From: Deltaproteobacteria bacterium
GTDB taxonomy: Bacteria > Myxococcota > Kuafuiibacteriia > Kuafuiibacteriales > Kuafuiibacteriaceae
NCBI GenBank assembly: GCA_040218735.1
Contig: JAVJQW010000054.1
Location: 1-16,586, forward strand
Direction of reading: 5' to 3'
DNA: 16,586 nt
In this document: positions 1,872 through 15,401 of the stretch, piece after piece
Numbering within the stretch: the first letter of the stretch is position 1
Layout of the letters: each line of letters opens with the position of its first letter
Notes under the pieces: generated by a model
Database searches by the model: none
What the model was told of the DNA's origin: nothing
What the model saw: only the letters and a program-made list of their open reading frames with translations
Program-made: the position numbers and the translations under genes

Positions 1872-3563
1872 TCAGCGTTTCTTCATGAACAGCCGGAGCA
1901 CGCTGATCTTCTTCAGCCGCGGCCGCAGCATCGCGTAGGCCCCGACCCACGACACGACCATCCCGCCGACCACCGCGCCGAACACGCCGACGATCGGGAT
2001 GCCGAAGATCTTCCAGTCGAGCTGCGCCAGCCCGATGAACGATCCGATGATGAACGACCCGCCGAGGATCGCACCCGACACGGTCGTCGCCGCGGTGAGC
2101 AGCGACGTGTTCAAACGCTCGAGCTGCTGCCCGCTGACGCTCACCCCGAGTCGCCCCGACGACACGTCCGAGAGAATCTGCGACACCTGCAGCGGGAGGT
2201 CCTCCGACATCCCCTGGAACTGGAGGAGCGCGCGGTAGAGGCCCCCCTCCACCTGCTGCGGACCGATGCGATCCACGAGCAGCTTCTCCGCGTAGGGGCG
2301 CGCGACTTCCGCCACGTCGATCTCCGGATCGAGCTCGCGGACGATGCCCTCGATCGTCGCGCCCGCGCGACCGAGCATCGTGTACTCGGTCGGGATCCGC
2401 AGCCGGTGTTTCATGCCGAGCGCGAGGATCTGTTGGGTGAGGAGCGTCGAGTCGATGTCGCTGATGCTCCGGTTCAAGTAGCGCTGGAGCACCAGCTCCG
2501 TGTCGCGTTTCACCTCCGCGAGGTCGACGCGTTCGTCCGGCTGCCCGAGGCGGTAGAGGGTGCGGGAGATCGTGTCGGCGTCGCGGACGGCGACCGCCAG
2601 CGCGATCACCACGATGGTCTCCTTCATCTGCGGCGACAGGCGCCCGAGGAGACCGAAGTCGAGGATCGCGTACCGCCCGTCGTCGAGCAGCATCAGGTTC
2701 CCGGGGTGCGGGTCCGCGTGGAAGACGCCGTCGATGAAGACCTCGTCGAACGCCTCCGCGATGATGCGCGCGGCGATCGACTTCTTGTCGACGTCGTCGG
2801 GGAGCCGCGAGAACGGGACACCCTCCAGGTACTCCATCGTGAGCACCGTCGGCGAGGACAGCTCGGTGAACACCGCGGGGATCGCGATGTCCTTCCGCTC
2901 GGCGTGGAGCTTCGCGAACTCCATCGCGTTGCCGGCCTCGTGGCGGAAGTTGAGCTCCTCGGTGAGCGCCTTGTCGAACTCGCGTACGATCCCGACCGGC
3001 TCGGCGAGCTGCGACTCCTCGATGACGGCGTCGAGCAGGCGGGCGACGCGGTACAGGATGTCGACGTCGCTCTGCACCTCGGCCGCGATGCCCGGCCGCT
3101 GCACCTTGATGACGACGCTGTCGCCGCTGGTCGTCACGCCCCGGTGCACCTGCGCGATGGACGCCGTCGCGAGCGGCACGGGATCGATCGACGAGAACAG
3201 CACGTAGGGATCGCGACCGAGGCCTTCGCGGATCGCCTCTTCGATCTTCTCGAACGGCAGCGGCTCGCAGTCGTCCTGCAGGTTCTTGAGCTCTTCGACG
3301 TACTCGCGCGAGACGAGGTCGGGGCGCGAGGAGAGCACCTGCCCGAACTTGATGAACGTGGGGCCCAGCTCCTCGAGCATCAGCCGGAAGCGCCGGGGGG
3401 CGGAGCCGCTCTGTTTTTCGTCCTCGTTGGGTTCGAAGTCCGTGGTCGACAGCTCGTCCGGCAGGTCCGGCGACTTCTTCACGAACTCGTCGTAGCCGTA
3501 CTTGCCGATGACGCCGGAGATCCGGCGCAGGCGCTTCAGGTCCTGGGCGGCGGCGCGCAGCAC
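1872..3563 (-). CDS. AarF/ABC1/UbiB family atypical kinase with C-terminal membrane helices
   Basis: LGPTFIKFGQ (KxGQ), ATASIAQVH (A-rich loop), VIKVQRP, HADPHPGN and DFG motifs; two hydrophobic segments at the C-terminus. Confidence 0.95.
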   Translation of the reverse strand: MLRAAAQDLKRLRRISGVIGKYGYDEFVKKSPDLPDELSTTDFEPNEDEKQSGSAPRRFRLMLEELGPTFIKFGQVLSSRPDLVSREYVEELKNLQDDCEPLPFEKIEEAIREGLGRDPYVLFSSIDPVPLATASIAQVHRGVTTSGDSVVIKVQRPGIAAEVQSDVDILYRVARLLDAVIEESQLAEPVGIVREFDKALTEELNFRHEAGNAMEFAKLHAERKDIAIPAVFTELSSPTVLTMEYLEGVPFSRLPDDVDKKSIAARIIAEAFDEVFIDGVFHADPHPGNLMLLDDGRYAILDFGLLGRLSPQMKETIVVIALAVAVRDADTISRTLYRLGQPDERVDLAEVKRDTELVLQRYLNRSISDIDSTLLTQQILALGMKHRLRIPTEYTMLGRAGATIEGIVRELDPEIDVAEVARPYAEKLLVDRIGPQQVEGGLYRALLQFQGMSEDLPLQVSQILSDVSSGRLGVSVSGQQLERLNTSLLTAATTVSGAILGGSFIIGSFIGLAQLDWKIFGIPIVGVFGAVVGGMVVSWVGAYAMLRPRLKKISVLRLFMKKR

Positions 3564-3609: not shown

Positions 3610-4794
3610 TCACATCTCGGTGCGGAACGGAGCGAGGAGCGCGCCCAGCGCCCTGCGCCACCACGCCTCCCGCCACCCCTGTAGCGAGCGCTCCGTGCTG
3701 CGGTCGAGGTCCGCCATGAAGTGGTCGCCGAGCAGCTCCACCAGCCGCGGCGAGGAGAGGACGGCGGAGACCTCGTCGTCCTTGCGGAGCGACCGCTGAT
3801 TCATGTTCGCGGACCCGACACACGCGAGGTCGTCGTCCACGATGAGCACCTTCGCGTGCATCATCGTCGGGTCGTACTCGTGGATTCGGACGCCGGCCTC
3901 CAGCAGCGCCCCCATCGTGCGCTCGCTCGCGAGGCGGACCGCGGTCTGGTCGATGTGCTCGCCCGGGAGGAGGATCCGCACGTCGGCGCCGTCCATCGCG
4001 AGGCGGCAGAGCTGCTCGACCGTCTTGTCGTCGGGGACGAAGTACGGCGTCGCCGCCCAGACGCGTCGTTTCGCGAGCGCGAGGAGCGTCCGGAACATCG
4101 AAGCCGTCTCGCTCCAGCCGATCGACGCGGTGCTACGGACGATCAGGACGCGTTCGTCGGAGCCGGGTATCGGATCGCACGGCCGGGCGTCGTCCCAGCG
4201 CGCGGGGAGGTCCGCGGTCATCTCGATCCAGTTGCCGGCGAAGGCCCCCCACAGGTTTCGCACGGCCGGGCCGCGGATCTCGAGGTGGGTGTCGCGCCAC
4301 TCGTCGGGCGACCGGGCGTCGCCGGTCCACTCCTCGGCGATCCCCACGCCACCCGTGAAGCCGACGTCGTGGTCGACGATCAGGAGCTTGCGGTGGGTGC
4401 GATGACTGGTGCGCCACACGCGCCAGGTCGCCTTCGGTCGGAACCAGCGCACGTCGGCGCCCGCGTCTTCGAGGAGCGCCACGAGCGCGTCGGACATATC
4501 GGACGCGCCGACGGCGTCGAGCACGACCATCACGTCGACCCCACGCCGCGCCGCGTCGGCGAGCGCGTTTGCGAAGCGCTCGGCGATCTCACCCTGCCAG
4601 TAGACGAACGTGACGAACGCGATCGAAGTCTCGGCGGCTTCGATCGCCGCCAACATCGCGGGGAAGATCTCGACACCGTTCTTCAGGACCCGGACGTCGT
4701 TGCCGCCGAGGAACCGCGCGCCGAGCACCTGCTCGAGCGCGCGTTCTCGGTGGCGACGGGTGTCGTCGACGTCGGGGAAGCGTAGCGCGACCAA
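3610..4794 (-). CDS. cls: Phospholipase D family cardiolipin synthase (ClsB-like, no N-terminal membrane anchor)
   Basis: Two HKD motifs: HRKLLIVD..GFTGGVGI and HAKVLIVD..VGSANM; also WRDTHL and ATPYFVP. The start codon (TTG 4794) is uncertain. Confidence 0.9.
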   Translation of the reverse strand: MVALRFPDVDDTRRHRERALEQVLGARFLGGNDVRVLKNGVEIFPAMLAAIEAAETSIAFVTFVYWQGEIAERFANALADAARRGVDVMVVLDAVGASDMSDALVALLEDAGADVRWFRPKATWRVWRTSHRTHRKLLIVDHDVGFTGGVGIAEEWTGDARSPDEWRDTHLEIRGPAVRNLWGAFAGNWIEMTADLPARWDDARPCDPIPGSDERVLIVRSTASIGWSETASMFRTLLALAKRRVWAATPYFVPDDKTVEQLCRLAMDGADVRILLPGEHIDQTAVRLASERTMGALLEAGVRIHEYDPTMMHAKVLIVDDDLACVGSANMNQRSLRKDDEVSAVLSSPRLVELLGDHFMADLDRSTERSLQGWREAWWRRALGALLAPFRTEM

Positions 4795-4801
4795 CGGAAC
4801 C

Positions 4802-5011
4802 CTACGCCGTCGCCTTGAACGTTCCGTCCGGGTTGCGCGCCTGGTTCTGCGCCTGCTTCGACTTCACGTTCGGGTTCCGGAAGTACGCCCAGACGCCGAC
4901 GGCGACCGCGGCCGCGCCGGTCAGCGCACCGGCGATGGTCCGCTGCGAGGCGCTCGTGCTCTGCACGGCTTCGAAGATACGGGTGGAGAGGGTCGGCTTT
5001 TTGTTGAACAT
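4802..5011 (-). CDS. Small (69-aa) basic protein with one hydrophobic segment
   Basis: MFNKKPTLSTRIFEAVQSTSASQRTIAGALTGAAAVAVGVWAYFRNPNVKSKQAQNQARNPDGTFKATA. ATG 5011 is preferred over the ORF-track start at 5110 because it follows the sigma54 motif. Ends 7 bp before cls. Confidence 0.7.
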   Translation of the reverse strand: MFNKKPTLSTRIFEAVQSTSASQRTIAGALTGAAAVAVGVWAYFRNPNVKSKQAQNQARNPDGTFKATA

Positions 5012-5024
5012 GACCCGAAACCAA

Positions 5025-5040
5025 AGCAGGCGGCGTGCCA
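5025..5040 (-). promoter_or_regulatory. Sigma54 (-24/-12) promoter
   Basis: Minus strand TGGCACGCCGCCTGCT versus consensus TGGCACRNNNNTTGCW: one mismatch and exact GG-N10-GC spacing. It is intergenic and points at ATG 5011. Confidence 0.7.
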
Positions 5041-5174
5041 GCGGCGGCGCCCGGGTTCGCACGGGCTCTGACGGCGCGCCTGGCCACGGGTGCGCGCGCG
5101 GGCGTGACACAACTCCACGGTCGCCATCGAATTCGAGTGCGAACGCCGCCGCAATTGCACTAGCCTCGCGGGTC

Positions 5175-6476
5175 TTGGCCTCGGACTACCAGCACGCCAC
5201 CGCCACCCTCGACAACGGCCTCACCGTCGTCACCATCGCGATGCCACACCTGCACAGCGCGACCGTGTCGCTGTTCGCGCGCGTCGGGAGCCGCCACGAG
5301 CCAGGACCCGACAACGGGCTGTCGCACTTCCTCGAACACATGTTCTTCCGCGGCTGCGCCGGGTTCGAGGACAGCACCGCGCTCAACACGGCGATCGAAG
5401 ATCTCGGCGGCTACCTCGACGGGTTCACGACGCGCGACTACTCCGGTTACCAGACGACGATTCACCCGGACCACGTGGACCGCGCGACCGAGATCCTCGG
5501 CGCGATGTTCACGACGCCGACGTTCGAGCAGATCGACGTCGAGCGCGGCATCATCCTCGAGGAGATGCTCGACGCGCTCGACGACAAGGGGCGTGAGATC
5601 GACATCGACGTCCTCGCCCACCGCACCGCCTTCCCTACGCACGGGCTCGCCCAGCCGATCGACGGGATGCAGGACAACGTGAAGCGCTTCTCGGTCGACG
5701 ATCTCCGCCGGCACATGAAGCGCTTCTACGGCGCGAAGAACTTGGTGCTCTGCTTCGCGGGGCGCATCGATCCGCGGAAGTGCCGCGCCGTCGCGAAGCG
5801 CGCGTTCGGCGCGATGCCCGCGGGTAAGAAGGTGAGCGACGGGCGGCGGCCCAAGCTCCCGAACGACGGCACGCACCTCGCCTTCACCCCCTACGCCGAC
5901 GCACAGACCCGCGTTCGCCTGTCGTTCCACACCGTGAGCGACACCCACGCGGACCACGCGGCGCTGGTCGTGTTGCGCCGGATCTTCGACGGCGGCCTGT
6001 CGGCGCGCCTGCAGGTCGAGCTCGTCGAAAAGCGCGGCGTCGTCTACGAGATCAGCGCCGACGTGGAGTCGTACGCGGACTGCGGGCTCTTCGACTTCGA
6101 GCTCGCCGTCGCCAACGACAAACTCGCGTACGCGATCGACGAGCTGATGAAGGTCATCCACGACGTCGTGCACACCGGCGTCGACGCCGAAGAGCTCGAA
6201 CGCGTGAAGCTCCGAGCGCGTTGCAGTGTGGAGTTCGGCCTCGACTCCGCCTCCGAGATGACCCAGTGGTTCGGCGTGAACCGCCTCTTCTCCGAGCCGA
6301 AGTCTCCCGAGGAGCGCCTCGCGGAGCTCGAAGCCGTCACCCTCGACGACGTGCGACGCGTCGCGAAGAAGTACCTGCGCGGCAAACGCCTCACGGCCGC
6401 CGCGGTCGGCGGCGTGAAGGGCAAGCGCCTCGACAAGGCCCGCCAGACCTTCGCGAAGGCCGCAACCGCTCTGTAG
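5175..6476 (+). CDS. M16 (pitrilysin/insulinase) family zinc peptidase
   Basis: Inverted zinc motif HFLEH in VGSRHE..NGLSHFLEHMFF, downstream ERGIILEE, and C-terminal GGLSARL..VEKRGVVY. Start trimmed to TTG 5175 just before TLDNGLTV; the exact start is uncertain. Confidence 0.92.
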   Translation: MASDYQHATATLDNGLTVVTIAMPHLHSATVSLFARVGSRHEPGPDNGLSHFLEHMFFRGCAGFEDSTALNTAIEDLGGYLDGFTTRDYSGYQTTIHPDHVDRATEILGAMFTTPTFEQIDVERGIILEEMLDALDDKGREIDIDVLAHRTAFPTHGLAQPIDGMQDNVKRFSVDDLRRHMKRFYGAKNLVLCFAGRIDPRKCRAVAKRAFGAMPAGKKVSDGRRPKLPNDGTHLAFTPYADAQTRVRLSFHTVSDTHADHAALVVLRRIFDGGLSARLQVELVEKRGVVYEISADVESYADCGLFDFELAVANDKLAYAIDELMKVIHDVVHTGVDAEELERVKLRARCSVEFGLDSASEMTQWFGVNRLFSEPKSPEERLAELEAVTLDDVRRVAKKYLRGKRLTAAAVGGVKGKRLDKARQTFAKAATAL

Positions 6477-6505: not shown

Positions 6506-7312
6506 TCAGCGTCCGGTGACGTTGCGGACTTCTTGGAGGAGCTCTTCGCCCGTCAACTGCGTGTCGCGCGACGGGGTGCCGTGGGGGGCCTCGAACACGA
6601 CGTGCATGTCCGAGCGGCGCACGATCAGATCGATGCCGCGCGCCTCCGAGAACGGGCTGGTGTCGAACACCCGCGTACGCGGGGTCGATTCGCCGTCGCC
6701 GACGCAGAGCCCCTTGTCGCTCCCGTACCCGTTGAACGCCTGACGGCACTGCACGGCAGTCCCATCCTGGTTCGTCGTCGTGTGCTCGAGCACCCAGATG
6801 ATCTGAGCCCCCGCTGCGAGTATGTCTTCTTCAACCGCGGCCACCGACCTGGCGTGCCTCACACAGTCTGGTCACCACGCGTCCAGGGAGACGAACAGCA
6901 ACGCGTCCACGTCCCCCCAGGTGCCGTCCGAGTTGCAGAAGACGTCGTGCAGGTCGAGGACCGTCGAGACGTCGTTCCCGTCGATCGCCTGCGGCCAGGC
7001 GTACGGGAAGAGCGGCTGGTTGAGGGCCATCGGCTCGGCCGGGTTGGCCGGGTACTCGCAGTTCGCGACGCCCGCGTCCCGGAAGCCGCCGTCGCGCGGT
7101 GCGCCGCCACCGTCGCGCGGTGCGCCGCCGCCGTCGCGCGGTGCGCCGCCGCCGTCGCGGATGACGCCGTTGCCGGCGTCGCGGATGACGTTCTCACCGG
7201 CGTCGCGCGGCCCGGTGATGTCGTCGTCGGTGCGATCGGTGCCGCCGGAGCATGCGATCAGGCTCAGCGTCAGCGGTGCGAGACACGCACGGGAGAAGGC
7301 GACTGGCCTCAC
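6506..7312 (-). CDS. Selenocysteine-containing thioredoxin-fold (TlpA/AhpC-TSA-like) lipoprotein, ~268 aa, in-frame UGA at 6872-6874
   Basis: ORFs 6872-7432 and 6506-6862 are in the same frame, joined by TGG TGA CCA GAC TGT. Read through, this gives LLFVSLDAW-U-PDC-VRHARSVAAVEEDILAAGAQIIWVL (strand, UxxC, helix, strand). GTG 7312 starts a signal peptide with lipobox LIA-C (Cys21). Confidence 0.85.
6833..6868 (-). promoter_or_regulatory. Bacterial SECIS-like hairpin
   Basis: mRNA after the UGA folds as GACUGU-GUGA-GGC-A-CGCC-[AGGUC]-GGUG-GCC-GCGGUU. The apical loop begins 21 nt after the UGA and contains GGU, as in the E. coli fdhF SECIS loop. Confidence 0.75.
7074..7210 (-). repeat. Coding tandem repeats (21-bp x3 plus 24-bp variants) encoding an RDGG/RDAG linker
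   Basis: Unit ccgccgtcgcgcggtgcgccg at 7086, 7107 (one mismatch) and 7128. Protein: PRDAGENVIRDAGNGVIRDGGGAPRDGGGAPRDGGGAPRDGGFRDAG. Confidence 0.9.
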
Positions 7313-7346
7313 GCTGCGTATCCAACCACGGATAGGCCTCGCGCGA

Positions 7347-7856
7347 CTACTCCCCCGGTTGTCCGACGCGGACGAGGAGCTCCTCGATCGCGGGCGAGCC
7401 GGGGATGGTCGGATCTTCGGGGCCGACCTCACCCGCGGCGTCGTAGGCCTGGTGGAACAGGTGCGGCGTCGCGGCGGTGCCGAAGTCGGTCGACGGTTCG
7501 AGCGCGTAGAGCAACGGCGCGTGGTCGGCGAAGTAGACTTTCAAATAGTCCTCCTCCCGGATCACCACCGGACGGTCCACGAGCTTGGACACGTCGCGCG
7601 CGTCGCGCAGGCCGGACGCCATGGTCGTCGAGCCGCCGAGATCGATCGCCTCCGACGACGTGAGTCGAAGCACCTTCCGCGGACGCACCCCGCCCACGAA
7701 CAGCTCGACACACTCGACCTCGCGCAGCGCGTAGCGGTGAAGCAACGCGCCGCGCCGGCCGCCGTTCAGCTCGCGCACCTCGATCTTGCCTTCGCCGAGG
7801 AACACGAGGGACCTCCTGAAACGAACCGAAATGTCCAAGACACGTGCTGCGCTCAC
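7347..7856 (-). CDS. Hypothetical protein (~169 aa)
   Basis: GTG 7856 has AAGGAG 8 nt upstream. The ORF fills the gap upstream of the selenoprotein gene on the same strand and has a protein-like composition. No recognised motif. Confidence 0.6.
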   Translation of the reverse strand: MSAARVLDISVRFRRSLVFLGEGKIEVRELNGGRRGALLHRYALREVECVELFVGGVRPRKVLRLTSSEAIDLGGSTTMASGLRDARDVSKLVDRPVVIREEDYLKVYFADHAPLLYALEPSTDFGTAATPHLFHQAYDAAGEVGPEDPTIPGSPAIEELLVRVGQPGE

Positions 7857-7949
7857 GGTGCCGACTCCTTCGCTCCCCCGCCCCATTGTACGAGTGACGC
7901 GAGCACCCTGTTTCATTCGAACCGACCGTTACGATCATCGTCCGTGATC

Positions 7950-8029: not shown

Positions 8030-9142
8030 TCAGCGGAGGATGTGGCCGGAGAGGATGTCGAGCGCCGGGAGGTCCTCGACGACCTCGTCGAGCAACGGCA
8101 ACGCGGTCGCCCCGCGCCCGCCGTCCTGCATCCCTTCCTTCTCGAGGTCCGCGAACAACGCGCGGTCCGAGACGATGCGCTGCTCCTCGAGCTTCGCGAA
8201 CGGCGTGAGCTTCGCGAGCGCGTCGGCGAGATCACCGGACGCGGTGATGTCCTGCGGGGACTCCGTCGCCTGGTCCGAAGCGTAGCTCCGGTTCAGGATG
8301 AAACCTTCCGACACGAGCCCGAGATCCTTGATGCGGCCCTTGAAGTACTTCGCCTCGGTGAGCGCGGCTTCGTCGGGCGACGCGATGACGATGAACGCGG
8401 CCTGGTCGGAGCGCAGGAGCTTCCGCACGCCCGACGCGTGGATGCGCATCTTCTGGAACAGCTTGCCGAACGCACCGAGGAAGTTCTGCAGCTCCTCCGC
8501 GAAGCTCTCGCCGAACGTCTTGGAGATCGCCGTGTTCACGACTTTCGACGCCGCGCGGATCATCGCGCCCGCGCGTTTCTCGGGATCGGGCGCGAAGATC
8601 GACAGCGTGCGTTCGTCGAGGAAACGCGCGAGGCGACGGGGTGCGTCGAGGAAGTCGAGCGCGTTCCGCGACGGCGGCGTGTCGAGGATGATCAGGTCGT
8701 ACGTCCCCGACTCGTTGAAGTTGTAGAGCGCCTCCGCCGCCGTGTACTCCTGCAGGCCGGTGATGACGTTCATCAGCGCTTGGTAGAGGCGCGTCGAACG
8801 GATCTTCGCGGCGTCCTCCTTCGAGGGCGCGAAGCGATCCACCACGCTCTCCAGCACGACCTGCGGATCGAGCATCCACGCGTGCAGCTCGCCGCCTTCC
8901 GGTACGTCGATCGATGCGTTGGCGAGAAGCGACGGATCGATCCGCACGGGCTCCTTGCCGGTCGGCGGGATCCCCAGCGCCTGCGCGAGGCGTCGCGCGG
9001 GATCGATCGTCAGCACCAGCGCGCGCCGTCCGGCCTTCGCGGCGGAGAGCGCGAGCGCAGCCGAGGTGGTGGTCTTGCCGACGCCGCCGGCGCCGCAGCA
9101 CACGATGATGCGCTTGTTGCGGACCAGCTCGTCGAGGTTCAC
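8030..9142 (-). CDS. ArsA/GET3-like (SIMIBI) ATPase, second subunit
   Basis: CCGAGGVGKTT Walker A, TIDPARRLAQALG switch I, YDLIILDTPP switch II. The GTG start overlaps the upstream TGA (GTGA at 9139-9142). Confidence 0.93.
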   Translation of the reverse strand: MNLDELVRNKRIIVCCGAGGVGKTTTSAALALSAAKAGRRALVLTIDPARRLAQALGIPPTGKEPVRIDPSLLANASIDVPEGGELHAWMLDPQVVLESVVDRFAPSKEDAAKIRSTRLYQALMNVITGLQEYTAAEALYNFNESGTYDLIILDTPPSRNALDFLDAPRRLARFLDERTLSIFAPDPEKRAGAMIRAASKVVNTAISKTFGESFAEELQNFLGAFGKLFQKMRIHASGVRKLLRSDQAAFIVIASPDEAALTEAKYFKGRIKDLGLVSEGFILNRSYASDQATESPQDITASGDLADALAKLTPFAKLEEQRIVSDRALFADLEKEGMQDGGRGATALPLLDEVVEDLPALDILSGHILR

Positions 9143-10077
9143 GGGGTGGCCCCCTGGATCTTCACCTCGTCGAGGAAGGTGGCGACCTCGCGCATGACGT
9201 CGCCGTGCGCGGTCTTGTCGGACTTCGGGATGGTGACCTTCGCGGCGGTCGCGGGGACTTCGGCTTCGAACTGTGCCTGCGCACCGAGCGCGCGCTCCAG
9301 TCGCCGGAACTCACGCGCGCCGAGGAGGAGCGAAGCCTCGCGTCCCTTCAGGTGATCGCGGAGCGCGTCCCGCTCGCCGTCCGTGAACGGGTTGTCGGGC
9401 ATCGCGTTGAGGATCATCGCGCGAACGCGGATGTCGAGCTTCTCGAGGCCGCGCGCGAGCTCGAGGGACTCGGTGACCGGCATCCCCTCCGGGAGCGTGA
9501 CGAGGACGGCGCAGCCGCGGGCGTCGTCGGTCATGGCGTCGAGGCCCTCCTGGATCGCCTGACCGATCAGCCCGGACGGGACCACGGAGAGGACGGTCTT
9601 CGGGAGCGACGCGAGGCCGAGCGCGTGGCCGGTCGCGGGGAGGTCGAGGATGATGTGGTCGAAACGCTTCGACCTCAGGAGCGTGACGAGGTGGTACAGC
9701 GTCCCGATCTCCGGGAACGCCGGGGCCGCCATCAGGAAACGGTTGAGCGCGGCGGACCGCATCGCCGCGTTCACGACCATCCCGACCTTGAGCGCGGCGG
9801 TCAGGAACAGCCGGTGCCCGGCGGACGGGGTGATCCGCACGCCGTAGAGGCGCTTTTCGAATTCGACGGGATCCTCGCCCTTCACGTCCGGGTGCCCGAA
9901 CAGGCCGAGGAGCTGCGACTTGGTGCTGGTGTCCGAGGTGACCTCGGCGATCAGGACGCGTTTGCCGGCGGTGTGGGCCGAGCGCGCGAGGGCGGCGGCC
10001 ACCGTGGTCTTCCCCACGCCGCCCTTCCCCGTGACGAGGACGAGCTCCTTGGCCCAGAGTGCTTCGTCGGCGCTCAT
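9139..10077 (-). CDS. ArsA/GET3-like (SIMIBI) ATPase, first subunit
   Basis: VTGKGGVGKTT, FDHIILDLPATGH, LVTLPEGMPVTE. ATG 10077 has GGAGG 10 nt upstream. Confidence 0.92.
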   Translation of the reverse strand: MSADEALWAKELVLVTGKGGVGKTTVAAALARSAHTAGKRVLIAEVTSDTSTKSQLLGLFGHPDVKGEDPVEFEKRLYGVRITPSAGHRLFLTAALKVGMVVNAAMRSAALNRFLMAAPAFPEIGTLYHLVTLLRSKRFDHIILDLPATGHALGLASLPKTVLSVVPSGLIGQAIQEGLDAMTDDARGCAVLVTLPEGMPVTESLELARGLEKLDIRVRAMILNAMPDNPFTDGERDALRDHLKGREASLLLGAREFRRLERALGAQAQFEAEVPATAAKVTIPKSDKTAHGDVMREVATFLDEVKIQGATP

Positions 10078-10188
10078 CCCGGCAACGCCTCCGTGTCGCA
10101 CGGTTTCACGTCCGTCACAACGATCGAGCGCCCGCGGGTCTGCCGCGGTTGACCCGCGACCTCGATTGCCCCGACAAGGGGCCCGCCG

Positions 10189-10577: not shown

Positions 10578-11983
<1,406 letters not shown>

Positions 11984-11987
<4 letters not shown>

Positions 11988-12667
11988 TCGACGAAGCGCG
12001 CCTGCAGCAGGTCGCGCTGCTCCACGAAGACGACGACATCGCGGTGCTCGTGAAGCCGCCGGGCCTCGCCGTGCACGGCGGCGCGGGGGAGAAGAAGACG
12101 TTGCTCGATGTGTTGGGGGCGGCGGATCCCGCGACGTCGTGGACGCTCGTACACCGGCTCGACAAGGCGACGAGCGGAGTGATGGTGGTGGCCAAGTCGG
12201 CGGCAGTGGCGTCCTCGCTCGCGGCGCAGTGGGATTCCACTCAAAAGAACTACGTGGCGTTGGCGTTCGGACATATGTCCGCGACGACCATCACCCGTCC
12301 GATCGTCGACAAACACGGCAACAAGCAGAGCGCGGTGACGCAGGTGACTTCGGCGCAGCCGTTGGCGTCGACGACGTTGCTGAACATCACGCTGCACACG
12401 GGTCGAAAGCACCAGATTCGGCGGCACCTCGCGGACGCGGGGTACCCGATCGCGATGGACGACAAGTACGGGGACTTTCGGCGAAACAAGGCGTTCGTGC
12501 GTGCGCTGAGAGAACACGGTGCGCCGCGTCCGAAGCACCTGTTCCTCGCCGCGGTGCGTCTGGTGCTCGCGGACGGTCGTGCGTTCGATGCACCACTTTT
12601 CGACGTTTGGCGCGCGGTGCTCGAAGCGGAGGGCAGCGCGGTCGACGAACTCGCGTTCCTTACGTAG
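11984..12667 (+). CDS. RluA-family RNA pseudouridine synthase (no S4 domain)
   Basis: KPPGLAVH, catalytic HRLDKATSG, TGRKHQIRRHL, YPIAMDDKYG. GTGA overlap with the upstream gene. Confidence 0.93.
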
Positions 12668-12686
12668 GATGCGACGGACCTACGGG

Positions 12687-15401
12687 ATGCTCTGTCGTGA
12701 GTGCGGAACCCCGAATCGTTCGGGCGCACGCCGATGCGTGCGATGTATGGCCGTCCTCATCGACGAGGTCGACACACGCCACGATCCGAACCGGTACCGG
12801 CGCCCCGCGCCGCAGGCGCCGTCGACGCAGATGCCCGACGAGGCGCCTTCACTTGTGGAAGAGGACGACACGATCCTCGGGATGCCGATCCCCGACACCG
12901 TCGCGGACACGTCGGCGCGCGGGATCGACGAGATCGACTTCGACAACGAGGGGCACACCGCGCACAGCCTCGACGCCGACACGGACGAGGACATGTACGC
13001 GGACGAGACGATCGTCGCGGAGGTGCAGTCGAAGCGTCCGGCGCCCGCCGGGCGCACGGCACGCGCGGAGCCGTGGGAGGACGTCGCCGAGGCGGCGCGC
13101 GGACCGGCGGGTCGTCGGTTCGTGGACGACCAGCCGACGAACGTCCCGCTGACGCGGCCCAAGCCGAAGTCGCGGGCGCAGACCGACGCGGCGCTGAGCG
13201 AGTTGAAGTCGTGGGCGGAGAATCGCCAGCGGTCGCGCTCGACGAACACCGGGCGGGCCGCGGCGCCGCGCGACAAGACGGCGGGGATGGCGTTGCCGTC
13301 GTTCCCGACGCCGAAGCCGTCCGGCCGTCTGCGTCCGAAGCCGTCGAAGTCGGAGCCGGTGATGGAGCTCGAGGTCGAGGACCGGCCGACGGTGCCGATC
13401 CTCGACGAGGAGACGGGGGACTTCGTCGTGGAAGCGTCGACGGGGGACCTCGGCGAGATCTCGACGCTCGGCGTCGGACACGCGGGCGGCGACGCACGGC
13501 ACCGCGCGCCCACGCGCGTCCCGGTCGACGACGCGACGCCCGTCGCGGGCTCGCAGGTCCCGGCGCGTCGGCCCTCCCCCCGCCGCGCGAAGCCGGAGAC
13601 TGGCCAGCGCCCGATCTCGCCGCCCAGCGCGTCGATGCGGCCGGCGGCAGACGAGGCGGTGCGTTCGGTGGACCACGCACGGCGCGCCGAGGCGGGGCGG
13701 GCGGAGGCCAGCCAGCGCCCGATCTCGCCGCCGAGCGCGTCGATGCGGCAGGCCGCGGAACGCGGACCACGTTCGGTCGACCCCGGCGACGCCAAGCGCG
13801 CCGAGGCGGGCCGCGCGAACGAACGCGCGGAGGCGGGCCGCGCGAACGAGCGCGCGGAGGCGGGTCGCACGAACCAGCGCTCGGAGGCGGGTCGCGGTGA
13901 GCTTCGTCGCGGCGCCGAGCACGGCGATCCCCAGCGCGCGGATCCTCATCGCGGCGCGGATCGCGCCGAGGCTCCTCGCGGCGCGAAGTCGCGGGGCGCC
14001 GCCGCGCGTGACGCCGATCAGGTCGCGCCCACGCGCCCGACGCCGGTGGGGAGCGCGGCGGCCGCGGCGGATCCTTCGGTGCGCGCCTACAAGAAGTCGC
14101 AGCCCGACCCCGTCTCGGACCTCGTCCTCACCACGCCCGGCGGCGGGACGCCGGCGCTGCGGCCGCAGAAGATCGTCCCGAACCCGCCGCCGCCGCGTGC
14201 GCCGCGCGGGGTCACGCGTTCGATCGCGAGCGACGCTCTGTCGCCGGTGGTGCCGACCGACCTCGACGACGCCGAGCCGTCCGGTGAGTCCACGCGGCTC
14301 GGCAACCTCGCGGACCCGTCGGCGGATCTGTTGATGGCGATGCCGGTGCATCACGATCGTCCGGCCGACGACGAGGGGCCCTCCGAGACGATCGCGGCGC
14401 CCGGTCAGCTCGCGGGCGCTGCGCCGCGGAGCTTGTCCGGGCTGGTGAAGGATCTCGACGCCGGCCCGTCGGAGCCGATGTCACCGCCCCCGATCCTCTC
14501 CACCGCGAGCGAGGTGCGCCGCGGCCTCGCCGAACACCTCGGCGGAGAGAAAGACTCGCGAACGGCGGATCAGCGACGGCTCCGCAACGCGCGGAGCGAG
14601 ACGACGGACCCGGAGATGTCGGACGTCGCCGGCCCGGATACGGGCGGACGCGAGGACACCAAGCGCCTCGGCAAGGAGGTCGTGCAGGCGGTGTTTGCGC
14701 AGGAGGAGACCGCCGGCCTCCTCGACGCGTTGGAGCCGGGGCCCGACACCGCGCCGGTGCTCGACGATCCGTCCGCGGACGTCTTCCGCCCCACGCCGCT
14801 GCAGCTCGATCCCTCGGCGCCCACGGGTGCGTCGCCGAGCCCGACGGGGTTCGACGCGGGCGCGCCGACGGGTGACCAGCTGATGCCGTTGGGCGTCGAC
14901 GTCTCGTTCGACGCGATCCCCGCGACGACCGACGCGTCCGATTCGCGCCGTCGTCTCGCGGTCGGGGTTCGTCGCTTCGGTGCCGTCCTGATCGACGCGA
15001 CGATCCTCGTCGCGCTGATCGCCGTGCCTGCGCTGTTCGGCGTCTTCTCGGAGGCGATCCCCAACGCGTCGTTGGTCGAGCCCGACGACGTCGCGGCGCT
15101 CCTCGTCGACGGCCACCTCACGTTGCCGTTGGTGTTCGGCGTCGTGCTGTACCTCGTCTACTCGGTCCTCGCGCACACGTTCGGCGGCCGCACCCTCGGC
15201 AAGCTCGCGCTGGGGCTCGAGCTCGTGAACACCAAGACAGGCGACCGCGTCACGCCGCTGCGCGCGATTCTCCGCGCGGTGTTCGGTTTGGTCGGGCTCC
15301 TCGCCGGGGGGATCGGATACTTCTGGCTGCTCTTGGATCGGCGCGGGCGAACGCTGCACGATCACCTCGCCCGCACCACCGTCGTCCTCGCCGAGCGGTG
15401 A
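12687..15401 (+). CDS. Zinc-ribbon + long low-complexity linker + RDD-family membrane domain protein (~904 aa)
   Basis: N-terminal CRECG..RRCVRC. C-terminal RRFGAVLID, GRTLGKLALGL and RTLHDHLARTTVV with hydrophobic helices. Start ATG 12687 or 12669; the ORF-track start at 12519 overlaps the RluA-family gene. Confidence 0.88.
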   Translation: MLCRECGTPNRSGARRCVRCMAVLIDEVDTRHDPNRYRRPAPQAPSTQMPDEAPSLVEEDDTILGMPIPDTVADTSARGIDEIDFDNEGHTAHSLDADTDEDMYADETIVAEVQSKRPAPAGRTARAEPWEDVAEAARGPAGRRFVDDQPTNVPLTRPKPKSRAQTDAALSELKSWAENRQRSRSTNTGRAAAPRDKTAGMALPSFPTPKPSGRLRPKPSKSEPVMELEVEDRPTVPILDEETGDFVVEASTGDLGEISTLGVGHAGGDARHRAPTRVPVDDATPVAGSQVPARRPSPRRAKPETGQRPISPPSASMRPAADEAVRSVDHARRAEAGRAEASQRPISPPSASMRQAAERGPRSVDPGDAKRAEAGRANERAEAGRANERAEAGRTNQRSEAGRGELRRGAEHGDPQRADPHRGADRAEAPRGAKSRGAAARDADQVAPTRPTPVGSAAAAADPSVRAYKKSQPDPVSDLVLTTPGGGTPALRPQKIVPNPPPPRAPRGVTRSIASDALSPVVPTDLDDAEPSGESTRLGNLADPSADLLMAMPVHHDRPADDEGPSETIAAPGQLAGAAPRSLSGLVKDLDAGPSEPMSPPPILSTASEVRRGLAEHLGGEKDSRTADQRRLRNARSETTDPEMSDVAGPDTGGREDTKRLGKEVVQAVFAQEETAGLLDALEPGPDTAPVLDDPSADVFRPTPLQLDPSAPTGASPSPTGFDAGAPTGDQLMPLGVDVSFDAIPATTDASDSRRRLAVGVRRFGAVLIDATILVALIAVPALFGVFSEAIPNASLVEPDDVAALLVDGHLTLPLVFGVVLYLVYSVLAHTFGGRTLGKLALGLELVNTKTGDRVTPLRAILRAVFGLVGLLAGGIGYFWLLLDRRGRTLHDHLARTTVVLAER
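13603..13901 (+). repeat. Coding repeats in the RDD protein linker
   Basis: QRPISPPSASMR twice (13603 and 13711, 108 bp apart). 27-bp RAEAGRANE-type unit at 13797, 13824, 13851 and 13878. Confidence 0.9.

Follow-up and report, generated by a model that had tools for sequence, protein, structure and literature searches.

The stretch of DNA considered here, 16,586 nucleotides (nt) of contig JAVJQW010000054.1 in assembly GCA_040218735.1, comes from a member of the Myxococcota deposited as Deltaproteobacteria bacterium, and is called the window throughout, in its full length. On its minus strand it carries a gene that default open reading frame (ORF) calling divides into two ORFs, at 6872-7432 and 6506-6862. 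Read as a single frame, from a GTG start at 7312-7310 to a TGA stop at 6508-6506, the gene comprises 268 codons (7312-6506), including a proposed selenocysteine (Sec, or U in motifs) at codon 147, where the sole internal stop of the frame, a TGA at 6874-6872, stands within the motif D-A-W-[TGA]-P-D-C. We consider it very probable that the locus is one selenoprotein gene, encoding an exported, lipid-anchored thioredoxin-fold protein with a UxxC motif and a likely thiol-disulfide oxidoreductase, with the insertion of Sec inferred from sequence. The first-pass annotation of this DNA had described one frame broken by a single TGA at the position of the first Cys of a redox motif, and its coordinates and residue numbers are correct. 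The G+C content at third codon positions of the same frame is 0.92 upstream of the TGA and 0.85 downstream, and the choice of start is consistent with the homologues P0003-P0005, whose N-termini read MRP(V/L)..FS.

The predicted protein opens with a lipoprotein signal peptide, residues 1-20, followed by Cys21 (together 7250..7312, minus strand), and its N-terminus reads MRPVAFSRACLAPLTLSLIA-CSGG, with a LIA-C lipobox in which C21 would be the lipid-modified Cys. This signal, already picked out as LIA-C21 in the first-pass annotation, is present in the translation and matches the lipobox pattern [LVI][ASTVI][GAS]-C, a PROSITE-type pattern coded for this analysis; the strict pattern is found in 14 of the 20 family genes, the window gene included, and the other six (6/20) show a near-match, in the form of a hydrophobic stretch ending in A/G-C. 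A low-complexity linker rich in Gly, Asp and Arg comes next (7061..7249, minus strand) and contains tandem repeats: a 21-nt unit at 7085-7159, present in 3.6 copies and encoding GGGAPRD, and a 24-nt repeat at 7149-7207. Linker length and composition vary in every homologue, and since even P0003, a 97% identical homologue, has another repeat arrangement, linker length looks polymorphic among close strains.

The rest of the protein, Cys85-Arg268 (6509..7060, minus strand), is predicted from AlphaFold2 and Foldseek to be a thioredoxin-fold domain of AhpC-TSA/Redoxin-like type. Its residues can be compared across a clade of 21 sequences, made up of 20 TGA-bearing genes and one Cys form, and across a sister family of 41 Cys-bearing proteins, both described below; all coordinates in this paragraph are on the minus strand. 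The proposed Sec147, encoded by the in-frame TGA (6872..6874), would be the first residue of a U-P-D-C redox motif, and in the model it immediately precedes helix 68-78 (in domain numbering). Cys150 (6863..6865), the proposed resolving residue of the UxxC motif, is invariant (21/21 in the clade, 41/41 sister proteins), and His153 (6854..6856), six residues past Sec, is clade-specific (His in 21/21, with Tyr in 32/41 of the sister family). Further on, Arg225-Gly226 (6635..6640) takes the place that the alignment gives to a cis-proline (F/Y-P) before the third core strand, with the modelled strand 146-152 directly after it; that the usual cis-Pro is missing had been suspected from the start, and ARGIDLIV does stand where relatives have F-P-T/S. 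Four additional cysteines, in ANCEY, VFCN, VQCR and GLCV, were likewise rightly reported, the first being conserved in 16 of the 16 rows that cover it (5 of the 21 family rows begin after this column) and the other three in 21/21. Cys85 (7058..7060) and Cys126 (6935-6937) probably form a structural disulfide, a pair common to the sister family (the Cys85 column holds Cys in 16/16 covered clade rows and 40/41 sister proteins, the Cys126 column in 21/21 and 41/41). Cys189 (6746-6748) and Cys203 (6704-6706), a clade-specific pair, would probably make a second disulfide; Cys occupies both columns in 21/21 clade members, where the sister family has Ala (30/41) and Arg (33/41).

What carries the interpretation of a single gene is the conservation of its TGA, which is far beyond chance. 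A word-indexed protein search returned four relatives, three of which cover the N-terminal part alone and have ...DAW or ...PEW as their very last residues. The fourth, P0002, is a full-length 247-aa protein from a Myxococcota metagenome-assembled genome (MAG) which reads P-A-W-C-P-D-C, with Cys at the UGA position; its identity to the window protein is 44-49% on each side of that position and spans 95% of the domain, so the homologue that the first-pass annotation had hoped for, with Cys aligned to the UGA and similarity on both sides, does exist. We also scanned one genome per species with patterns drawn from the N-terminal half of the gene, a scan that is therefore blind to the TGA. A TGA occupied the homologous codon in 19/19 loci from other genomes, and the frame of these 19 loci runs on to a terminal stop (16 TGA, 3 TAG). 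Among the carriers are a cultured strain, Plesiocystis pacifica SIR-1 (L013), as well as Nannocystaceae ST9 (L007) and two MAGs, one of the Sandaracinaceae (L005) and one of the Polyangia (L004). Past the TGA, the 21-sequence alignment shows Pro at +1 in 20/21, Cys at +3 in 21/21 and His at +6 in 21/21, and a conserved P-x-C-x-x-H-A lies between the TGA and any possible restart codon in 20/20 TGA-bearing genes.

Could the TGA nonetheless be a true stop, whether in a pseudogene, through a sequencing error, or between a 146-aa lipoprotein and a 118-aa cytoplasmic ORF? Ordinary ORF calling yields two ORFs here, at the positions given above, and public annotation handles the relatives as separate pieces, yet we regard such a stop as extremely improbable. 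A sequencing error it cannot be, since the loci from other genomes carry the same TGA (19/19), with purifying conservation on both sides. Nor are the homologues consistently two genes: the P-x-C-x-x-H segment is kept before any restart, the N-terminal piece would break off halfway through the thioredoxin fold, just before the active-site helix, the Cys-form homologue is a single protein, and the C-terminal fragments in the protein library start variably, between profile positions 78 and 132. A global reassignment of TGA was also considered and ruled out: TGA is the ordinary stop of 4/5 Pfam-supported neighbouring genes, and the genetic code is therefore standard.

Two side observations concern the carriers themselves. 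Three genomes hold two paralogous TGA-containing copies, namely L003/L008 on a 6.9-Mb contig, L011/L016 on a 9.4-Mb chromosome and L018/L019 in one MAG. In addition, L009, L014, L015, L017, L018 and L019 come from MAGs whose records are titled Rickettsiales, Alphaproteobacteria or Enterobacteriaceae; the genes sit in the midst of copies from Myxococcota, 'MYXO' is part of two isolate names, and these taxonomic labels are probably wrong.

The protein libraries tell the same story from the side of annotation. A profile search of 1.84 billion cluster-representative proteins gave 346 matches at E <= 0.001, and we classified 153 relatives, consisting of the 150 of these matches that were listed and the three fragments from the word-indexed search. 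Of these, 89 are N-terminal fragments that end directly before the Sec column (75 of the 89 in 'PAW'), 21 are C-terminal fragments whose beginnings are scattered from profile position 78 to 132, and 43 read through the Sec column, 42 with Cys and 1 with Trp. P0002 is the only one of the 42 Cys proteins that belongs to the close clade, the other 41 forming the sister family. It had been anticipated that standard pipelines would split the gene, and this is borne out by the 110/153 classified relatives that are halves and by the P. pacifica copy, which is deposited under the name 'hypothetical protein PPSIR1_24219' and, at 171 aa, stops at the TGA. A full-length record of the Sec form was absent from the matches in either protein library, NCBIfam gave no meaningful match for 4 family members, and the full-text literature, a scope outside which most subscription journals fall, contained no description of the family.

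The fold agrees with the proposed active site. With the 21-sequence alignment, AlphaFold2 modelled the read-through domain at a mean predicted local distance difference test score (pLDDT) of 93 and a predicted template modelling score (pTM) of 0.91, with a strand at 57-64, then U67, then the helix at 68-78; thioredoxin folds classically have their attacking residue where U67 is modelled. In a Foldseek search of the PDB, a Bacillus thiol-disulfide oxidoreductase (4nmu) and Bacillus subtilis ResA (2f9s/1st9) came out at the top, with E from 7e-8 to 2e-6, a probability of 1.00 and template modelling (TM) scores by target of 0.71-0.81. A sequence-profile search of the PDB reached a best E of 0.17, and the fold search alone was informative. 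Across the family, at E <= 1, AhpC-TSA matches 19/21 members and Redoxin 18/21, the best at 4.4e-5, and the ESM Atlas groups P0002 with Myxococcota AhpC/TSA clusters; AhpC/TSA clusters of phages (Uroviricota) are also among its neighbours there.

Downstream of the TGA lies a hairpin resembling a selenocysteine insertion sequence (SECIS), GGC-A-CGCC / AGGUC / GGUG-GCC (6839..6858, extended form 6836-6861, minus strand). It starts 11 nt past the UGA, has its loop (6850-6846) 21 nt past the UGA and a local minimum free energy (MFE) of -11.0 kcal/mol, and the AGGUC loop is thus found just where the first-pass annotation had put it. Published criteria for bacterial SECIS elements (bSECIS) ask that the loop be 3-9 nt long, be separated from the UGA by 16-37 nt and have a G at one of its first two positions, that the upper stem comprise >=4 bp, and that the MFE be <= -7.5 kcal/mol (PMC13188914). 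When a 29-nt segment from 10 nt past the UGA was folded for each gene separately, the window hairpin agreed with all of these; within the family 17/20 pass strictly and 20/20 without the 4-bp contiguous-stem rule, the three exceptions failing this rule only, owing to a one-base bulge. The loop G is present in 20/20 genes, all of which place the loop 20-22 nt past the UGA and have MFEs between -8.0 and -13.5 kcal/mol. The hairpin exists in three registers, with a bulged A in the 5' arm, with a bulged U in the 3' arm, or with a perfect 7-8-bp stem; the last occurs in L011, L016, L017 and L019, with a U-A versus C-G exchange between L011 and L017. As these registers coexist, each sequence was scored on its own. 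At 3420 other in-frame positions of the family genes the background pass rate is 12% (strict) or 21% (lax). The hairpin alone is no more than chance would give; it is consistent with a SECIS and falls short of proof, and we do not use its fold energy as evidence.

Several results weigh against the selenoprotein interpretation, or against parts of it, and are best considered together. In the window gene itself, 22-29% of other in-frame positions pass the SECIS test (the G+C content of the window being 69%), and 464 of 1000 synonymous recodings of the hairpin (46%) fold equally well. Across the family the mean z against synonymous recodings is -0.97, and an 81-nt region gives z = -0.35 against dinucleotide shuffles, neither of which is significant. 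RNAalifold, run on the 20 aligned post-UGA segments, produced a different and weak consensus of -2.7 kcal/mol and missed the hairpin, as would follow from the coexistence of three registers; Rfam at gathering thresholds had 0 matches in the window; and the 20 genes are homologous, so that the 20/20 hairpin count does not amount to 20 independent trials. As for the Sec machinery, the 16.6-kb window and the 19 flanks showed no selA, selB, selC or selD: ARAGORN reported 0 tRNA genes, hence no tRNA-Sec, in the same DNA, and Pfam found no Sec-machinery domain (selA/selB/selD) in 21 window ORFs. The 20 loci show no conserved neighbours that would point to a pathway. Finally, identity to solved structures is just ~14%, the window protein scores 12.8 bits with AhpC-TSA (PF00578) and 12.4 with Redoxin (PF08534) against gathering thresholds of 26.6 and 26, and the loss of the cis-proline is a departure from ResA/TlpA-type proteins.

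At the level of whole genomes, P. pacifica SIR-1, the carrier of L013, is listed as SelD+, SelA+ and SelB+ in supplementary table 2 of Peng et al. 2016, and with 6 known selenoproteins in their supplementary table 3 (PMC5029168). Myxococcus, Anaeromyxobacter, Stigmatella and Haliangium are Sec-positive in the same study (PMC5029168). The Secmarker supplements contained no myxobacterial names, and Table S1 of BSepDB, a list of the genomes analysed, is no evidence of Sec use.

A further possibility is that UGA147 is read through by near-cognate decoding, with Trp, Cys or Arg inserted at a leaky UGA-C. UGA-C is the leakiest stop context in E. coli, and a C does follow the UGA in 19/20 genes. One relative, P0060, has Trp at the column (P-A-W-W-S-A-C). 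Its N-terminus consists of unrelated read-through sequence, which points to a gene caller set to translate TGA as Trp and not to a true Trp variant. All 42 Cys-bearing relatives, on the other hand, have their Cys within a CxxC redox motif, the classic Sec/Cys pair, a SECIS-type hairpin lies at the right distance in 20/20 genes, and the carriers include a species recorded as SelA/SelB/SelD-positive in the supplementary tables just mentioned. We consider near-cognate decoding very unlikely, and favour the insertion of Sec.

How might such a gene have arisen? The sister family, the 41 of the 153 classified proteins that are Cys lipoproteins with the motif W-C-P-x-C-P-x-Y (P0031, P0080 and P0104, for example), offers an answer. 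Its domain is homologous to that of the Sec clade (E between 1e-13 and 1e-22 in hmmsearch, along profile positions 3-165), and the two share lipobox-type N-termini, low-complexity linkers, the first cysteine pair and the bacterial groups in which they occur. The sister family differs from the clade in having Cys for Sec, Tyr for His at +6 and no second cysteine pair, and usually carries a C-terminal extension of ~110-150 residues, without a Pfam match, with Big_2 domains in some members. A possible likeness of this extension to a pre-peptidase C-terminal domain found no match in Pfam, and we make no such claim. Further members are P0053, P0067, P0078, P0089 and P0114, and P0053 comprises two tandem copies of the whole sister-family unit.

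For the two groups we built a maximum-likelihood tree from 62 domains, 20 of them of the Sec form, 41 from the sister family and the last from P0002, with no rows dropped, by a quick IQ-TREE search with support from the SH-like approximate likelihood ratio test (SH-aLRT) only. The 20 Sec genes and P0002 form one clade within the Cys family, with support of 100 and a stem of 1.78 changes per site, and P0002 lies inside the Sec clade, beside L004 and L005, with support of 95. This is read most simply as a single change from Cys to Sec and one later Sec-to-Cys reversal, within a single lipoprotein family; the clade would then go back to a single origin among the Cys-containing W-C-P-x-C-P lipoproteins that these bacteria also have. 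Along the stem of the clade, His at +6, the second cysteine pair and Arg-Gly in place of F/Y-Pro were gained as well. At the cis-proline site the clade has Arg/Lys in 21/21 and then Gly in 21/21, where the sister family has F/Y-Pro, with Pro in 33/41 at the Gly column. As the gain of Sec and the loss of Pro share one branch, the family constitutes a natural experiment on the cis-proline loop. Considering that one Cys form occurs among 21 full genes, the clade is almost wholly Sec-dependent in the library examined.

The surroundings of the gene give no functional clue: in an all-against-all clustering of 917 flanking ORFs, no neighbour family was present in more than 3/20 loci, and when 19 window ORFs were compared with the loci by tblastn, the sole results were a weak M16 match in L005 and antisense artefacts. 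On the minus strand of the window, a 189-codon ORF without a Pfam match (7347-7916) ends 35 nt upstream of the selenoprotein start, and has no counterpart beside the gene at other loci; a PLD-like phospholipase lies at 3610-4794 and an ArsA/ParA-type ATPase at 9139-10101. The plus strand encodes an M16 peptidase (4815-6476), convergent with the selenoprotein gene, an FHA-sigma54 activator (10578-11987) and a protein of 960 aa whose C-terminal part is an RDD domain (12519-15401). None of these five neighbours keeps its place beside the family at other loci.

Taken together, the conserved TGA, the Cys homologue, the fold and the lipobox support the interpretation first offered for this DNA, namely a predicted membrane-tethered, extracytoplasmic Sec oxidoreductase. 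We can sketch how such a protein might work. The ribosome would decode UGA147 as Sec, presumably through SelB and Sec-tRNA(Sec) recruited by the adjacent hairpin, and the product would be exported and, judging from its lipobox, lipidated at Cys21, with the flexible repeat linker holding it at the membrane, perhaps on the periplasmic or outer side. From fold and motif, the selenolate of Sec147, at the N-terminus of the active-site helix, may attack a disulfide in its substrate, or else an oxidised species of sulfur or oxygen; Cys150 would then resolve the selenenyl-sulfide (Se-S) intermediate, and a partner could recycle the protein. The most likely activity, on the modelled fold, would be extracytoplasmic thiol-disulfide (selenol-disulfide) oxidoreduction. 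The motif, W-U-x-x-C, and the top structural matches lead us to favour a ResA-like oxidoreductase.

Or could the Arg that takes the place next to the cis-proline activate the selenolate, or a peroxide, in a Se-dependent peroxidase of peroxiredoxin- or glutathione-peroxidase-like kind, or in a sulfenate- or selenium-handling protein? This is a credible, if rather doubtful, alternative. Peroxiredoxins have an Arg at the cis-proline position, where it lowers the pKa of the peroxidatic Cys (PMC2757866), and they fill most Foldseek ranks from 13 on, many at E about 1e-5. The clade has its Arg/Lys in 21/21, one alignment column before the Pro column of the sister family, and Gly for Pro in 21/21. 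No more than a lead in the same direction comes from another ESM Atlas neighbour of P0002, a Myxococcota cluster whose 609-aa proteins combine a CCP_MauG di-haem cytochrome c peroxidase domain with a seemingly similar thioredoxin-like domain. Against this, the peroxiredoxin motif P-x-x-x-T-x-x-C is absent, Sec comes first in a UxxC that follows a Trp, as in the W-C-x-x-C of ResA/TlpA proteins, the best structural matches are of ResA type, the Arg falls one column beside the Pro column of the alignment and not in it, and the Sec-peroxiredoxins named in the published lists are TxxU and not UxxC.

A ResA-like W-U-x-x-C and a peroxiredoxin-like Arg might also coexist in one hybrid site, in what would be almost obligately Sec-dependent lipoproteins at the surface or in the periplasm of aerobic myxobacteria. 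We put this forward as an unlikely speculation. If true, such a site could carry out a Se-dependent extracytoplasmic reaction (the detoxification of peroxide, sulfenate or reactive electrophiles, perhaps) that is done by neither parent family. Regardless of the reaction, the clade appears in the collections searched only as halves or as a 'hypothetical protein', even in the cultured P. pacifica SIR-1, and correcting its annotation would enlarge the selenoproteomes of myxobacteria by one protein, or by two in genomes such as those with L003/L008 and L011/L016. What results is a well-founded correction of annotation, together with a neat example of evolution, and not a new principle.

Amongst the closest known systems are the ResA/TlpA/CcmG-type oxidoreductases of cytochrome maturation, which share with the window protein the Trp directly before the first redox residue, the x-x-C spacing, and the membrane tether and extracytoplasmic location that are predicted here. 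ResA also has an ionisable residue six past its first redox residue; the window protein has His there, and the candidate ResA equivalent, by the spacing alone of C74/C77/E80, numbered as in PDB titles, is Glu80. The differences are just as clear: Sec in place of Cys, a lipid anchor in place of a transmembrane helix, two extra cysteine pairs, Arg-Gly for the cis-proline, and no cytochrome-maturation genes nearby. Thioredoxins and cytochrome-maturation proteins, by comparison, keep the cis-proline (PMC2757866). Peroxiredoxins belong to the same fold superfamily and, like the clade, have an Arg at or beside the cis-proline position. They are set apart by their P-x-x-x-T-x-x-C(U) motif, which the window clade does not have: F-V-S-(I/L)-P-A-W precedes its Sec, with no Thr at -3 and no Pro at -7, and its reactive residue is the first, not the second, of the xxx-C/U pair.

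Selenoproteins of related build have already been catalogued. Two compilations contain many thioredoxin-fold UxxC families in their Table 1 (PMC9312934; PMC13188914, the latter with 119 families and subfamilies), among them a 'Prx-like thiol:disulfide oxidoreductase' (PF00578), a 'Redoxin family protein' (PF08534) and a 'Thiol-disulfide isomerase-like' family (cd02966). The clade is not, by name, among the nine new families of deep-Sep. Few exported selenoproteins with lipoprotein signals have been described, SaoX being a precedent (preprint 10.1101/2022.07.06.499078). With the listed PF00578, PF08534 and cd02966 families the window protein has in common UxxC, the Pfam superfamily, a predicted redox function and truncation in databases. 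It differs in falling below their Pfam cut-offs and in having no NCBIfam model. The clade may be distinct from these families, set apart by their descriptions and not by representative sequences, and one of them may already cover it; such coverage is disfavoured by the sub-threshold Pfam scores, the lack of an NCBIfam model or a full-length Sec record, and the lack of a literature description. The suggestion of a possibly undescribed subfamily therefore stands, in that there is no NCBIfam model and the clade could not be assigned to any of the listed selenoprotein families. We see in it a genuine and largely unannotated subfamily, a myxobacterial branch of the ResA/peroxiredoxin superfamily with a predicted lipid anchor, Sec in nearly every member and no cis-proline. 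Thioredoxin-fold UxxC proteins are the commonest kind of bacterial selenoprotein, and the class is therefore not new; what distinguishes the window clade from the listed families is its lipoprotein signal, the absence of the cis-proline and, as far as seen, its occurrence in Myxococcota-type genomes only.

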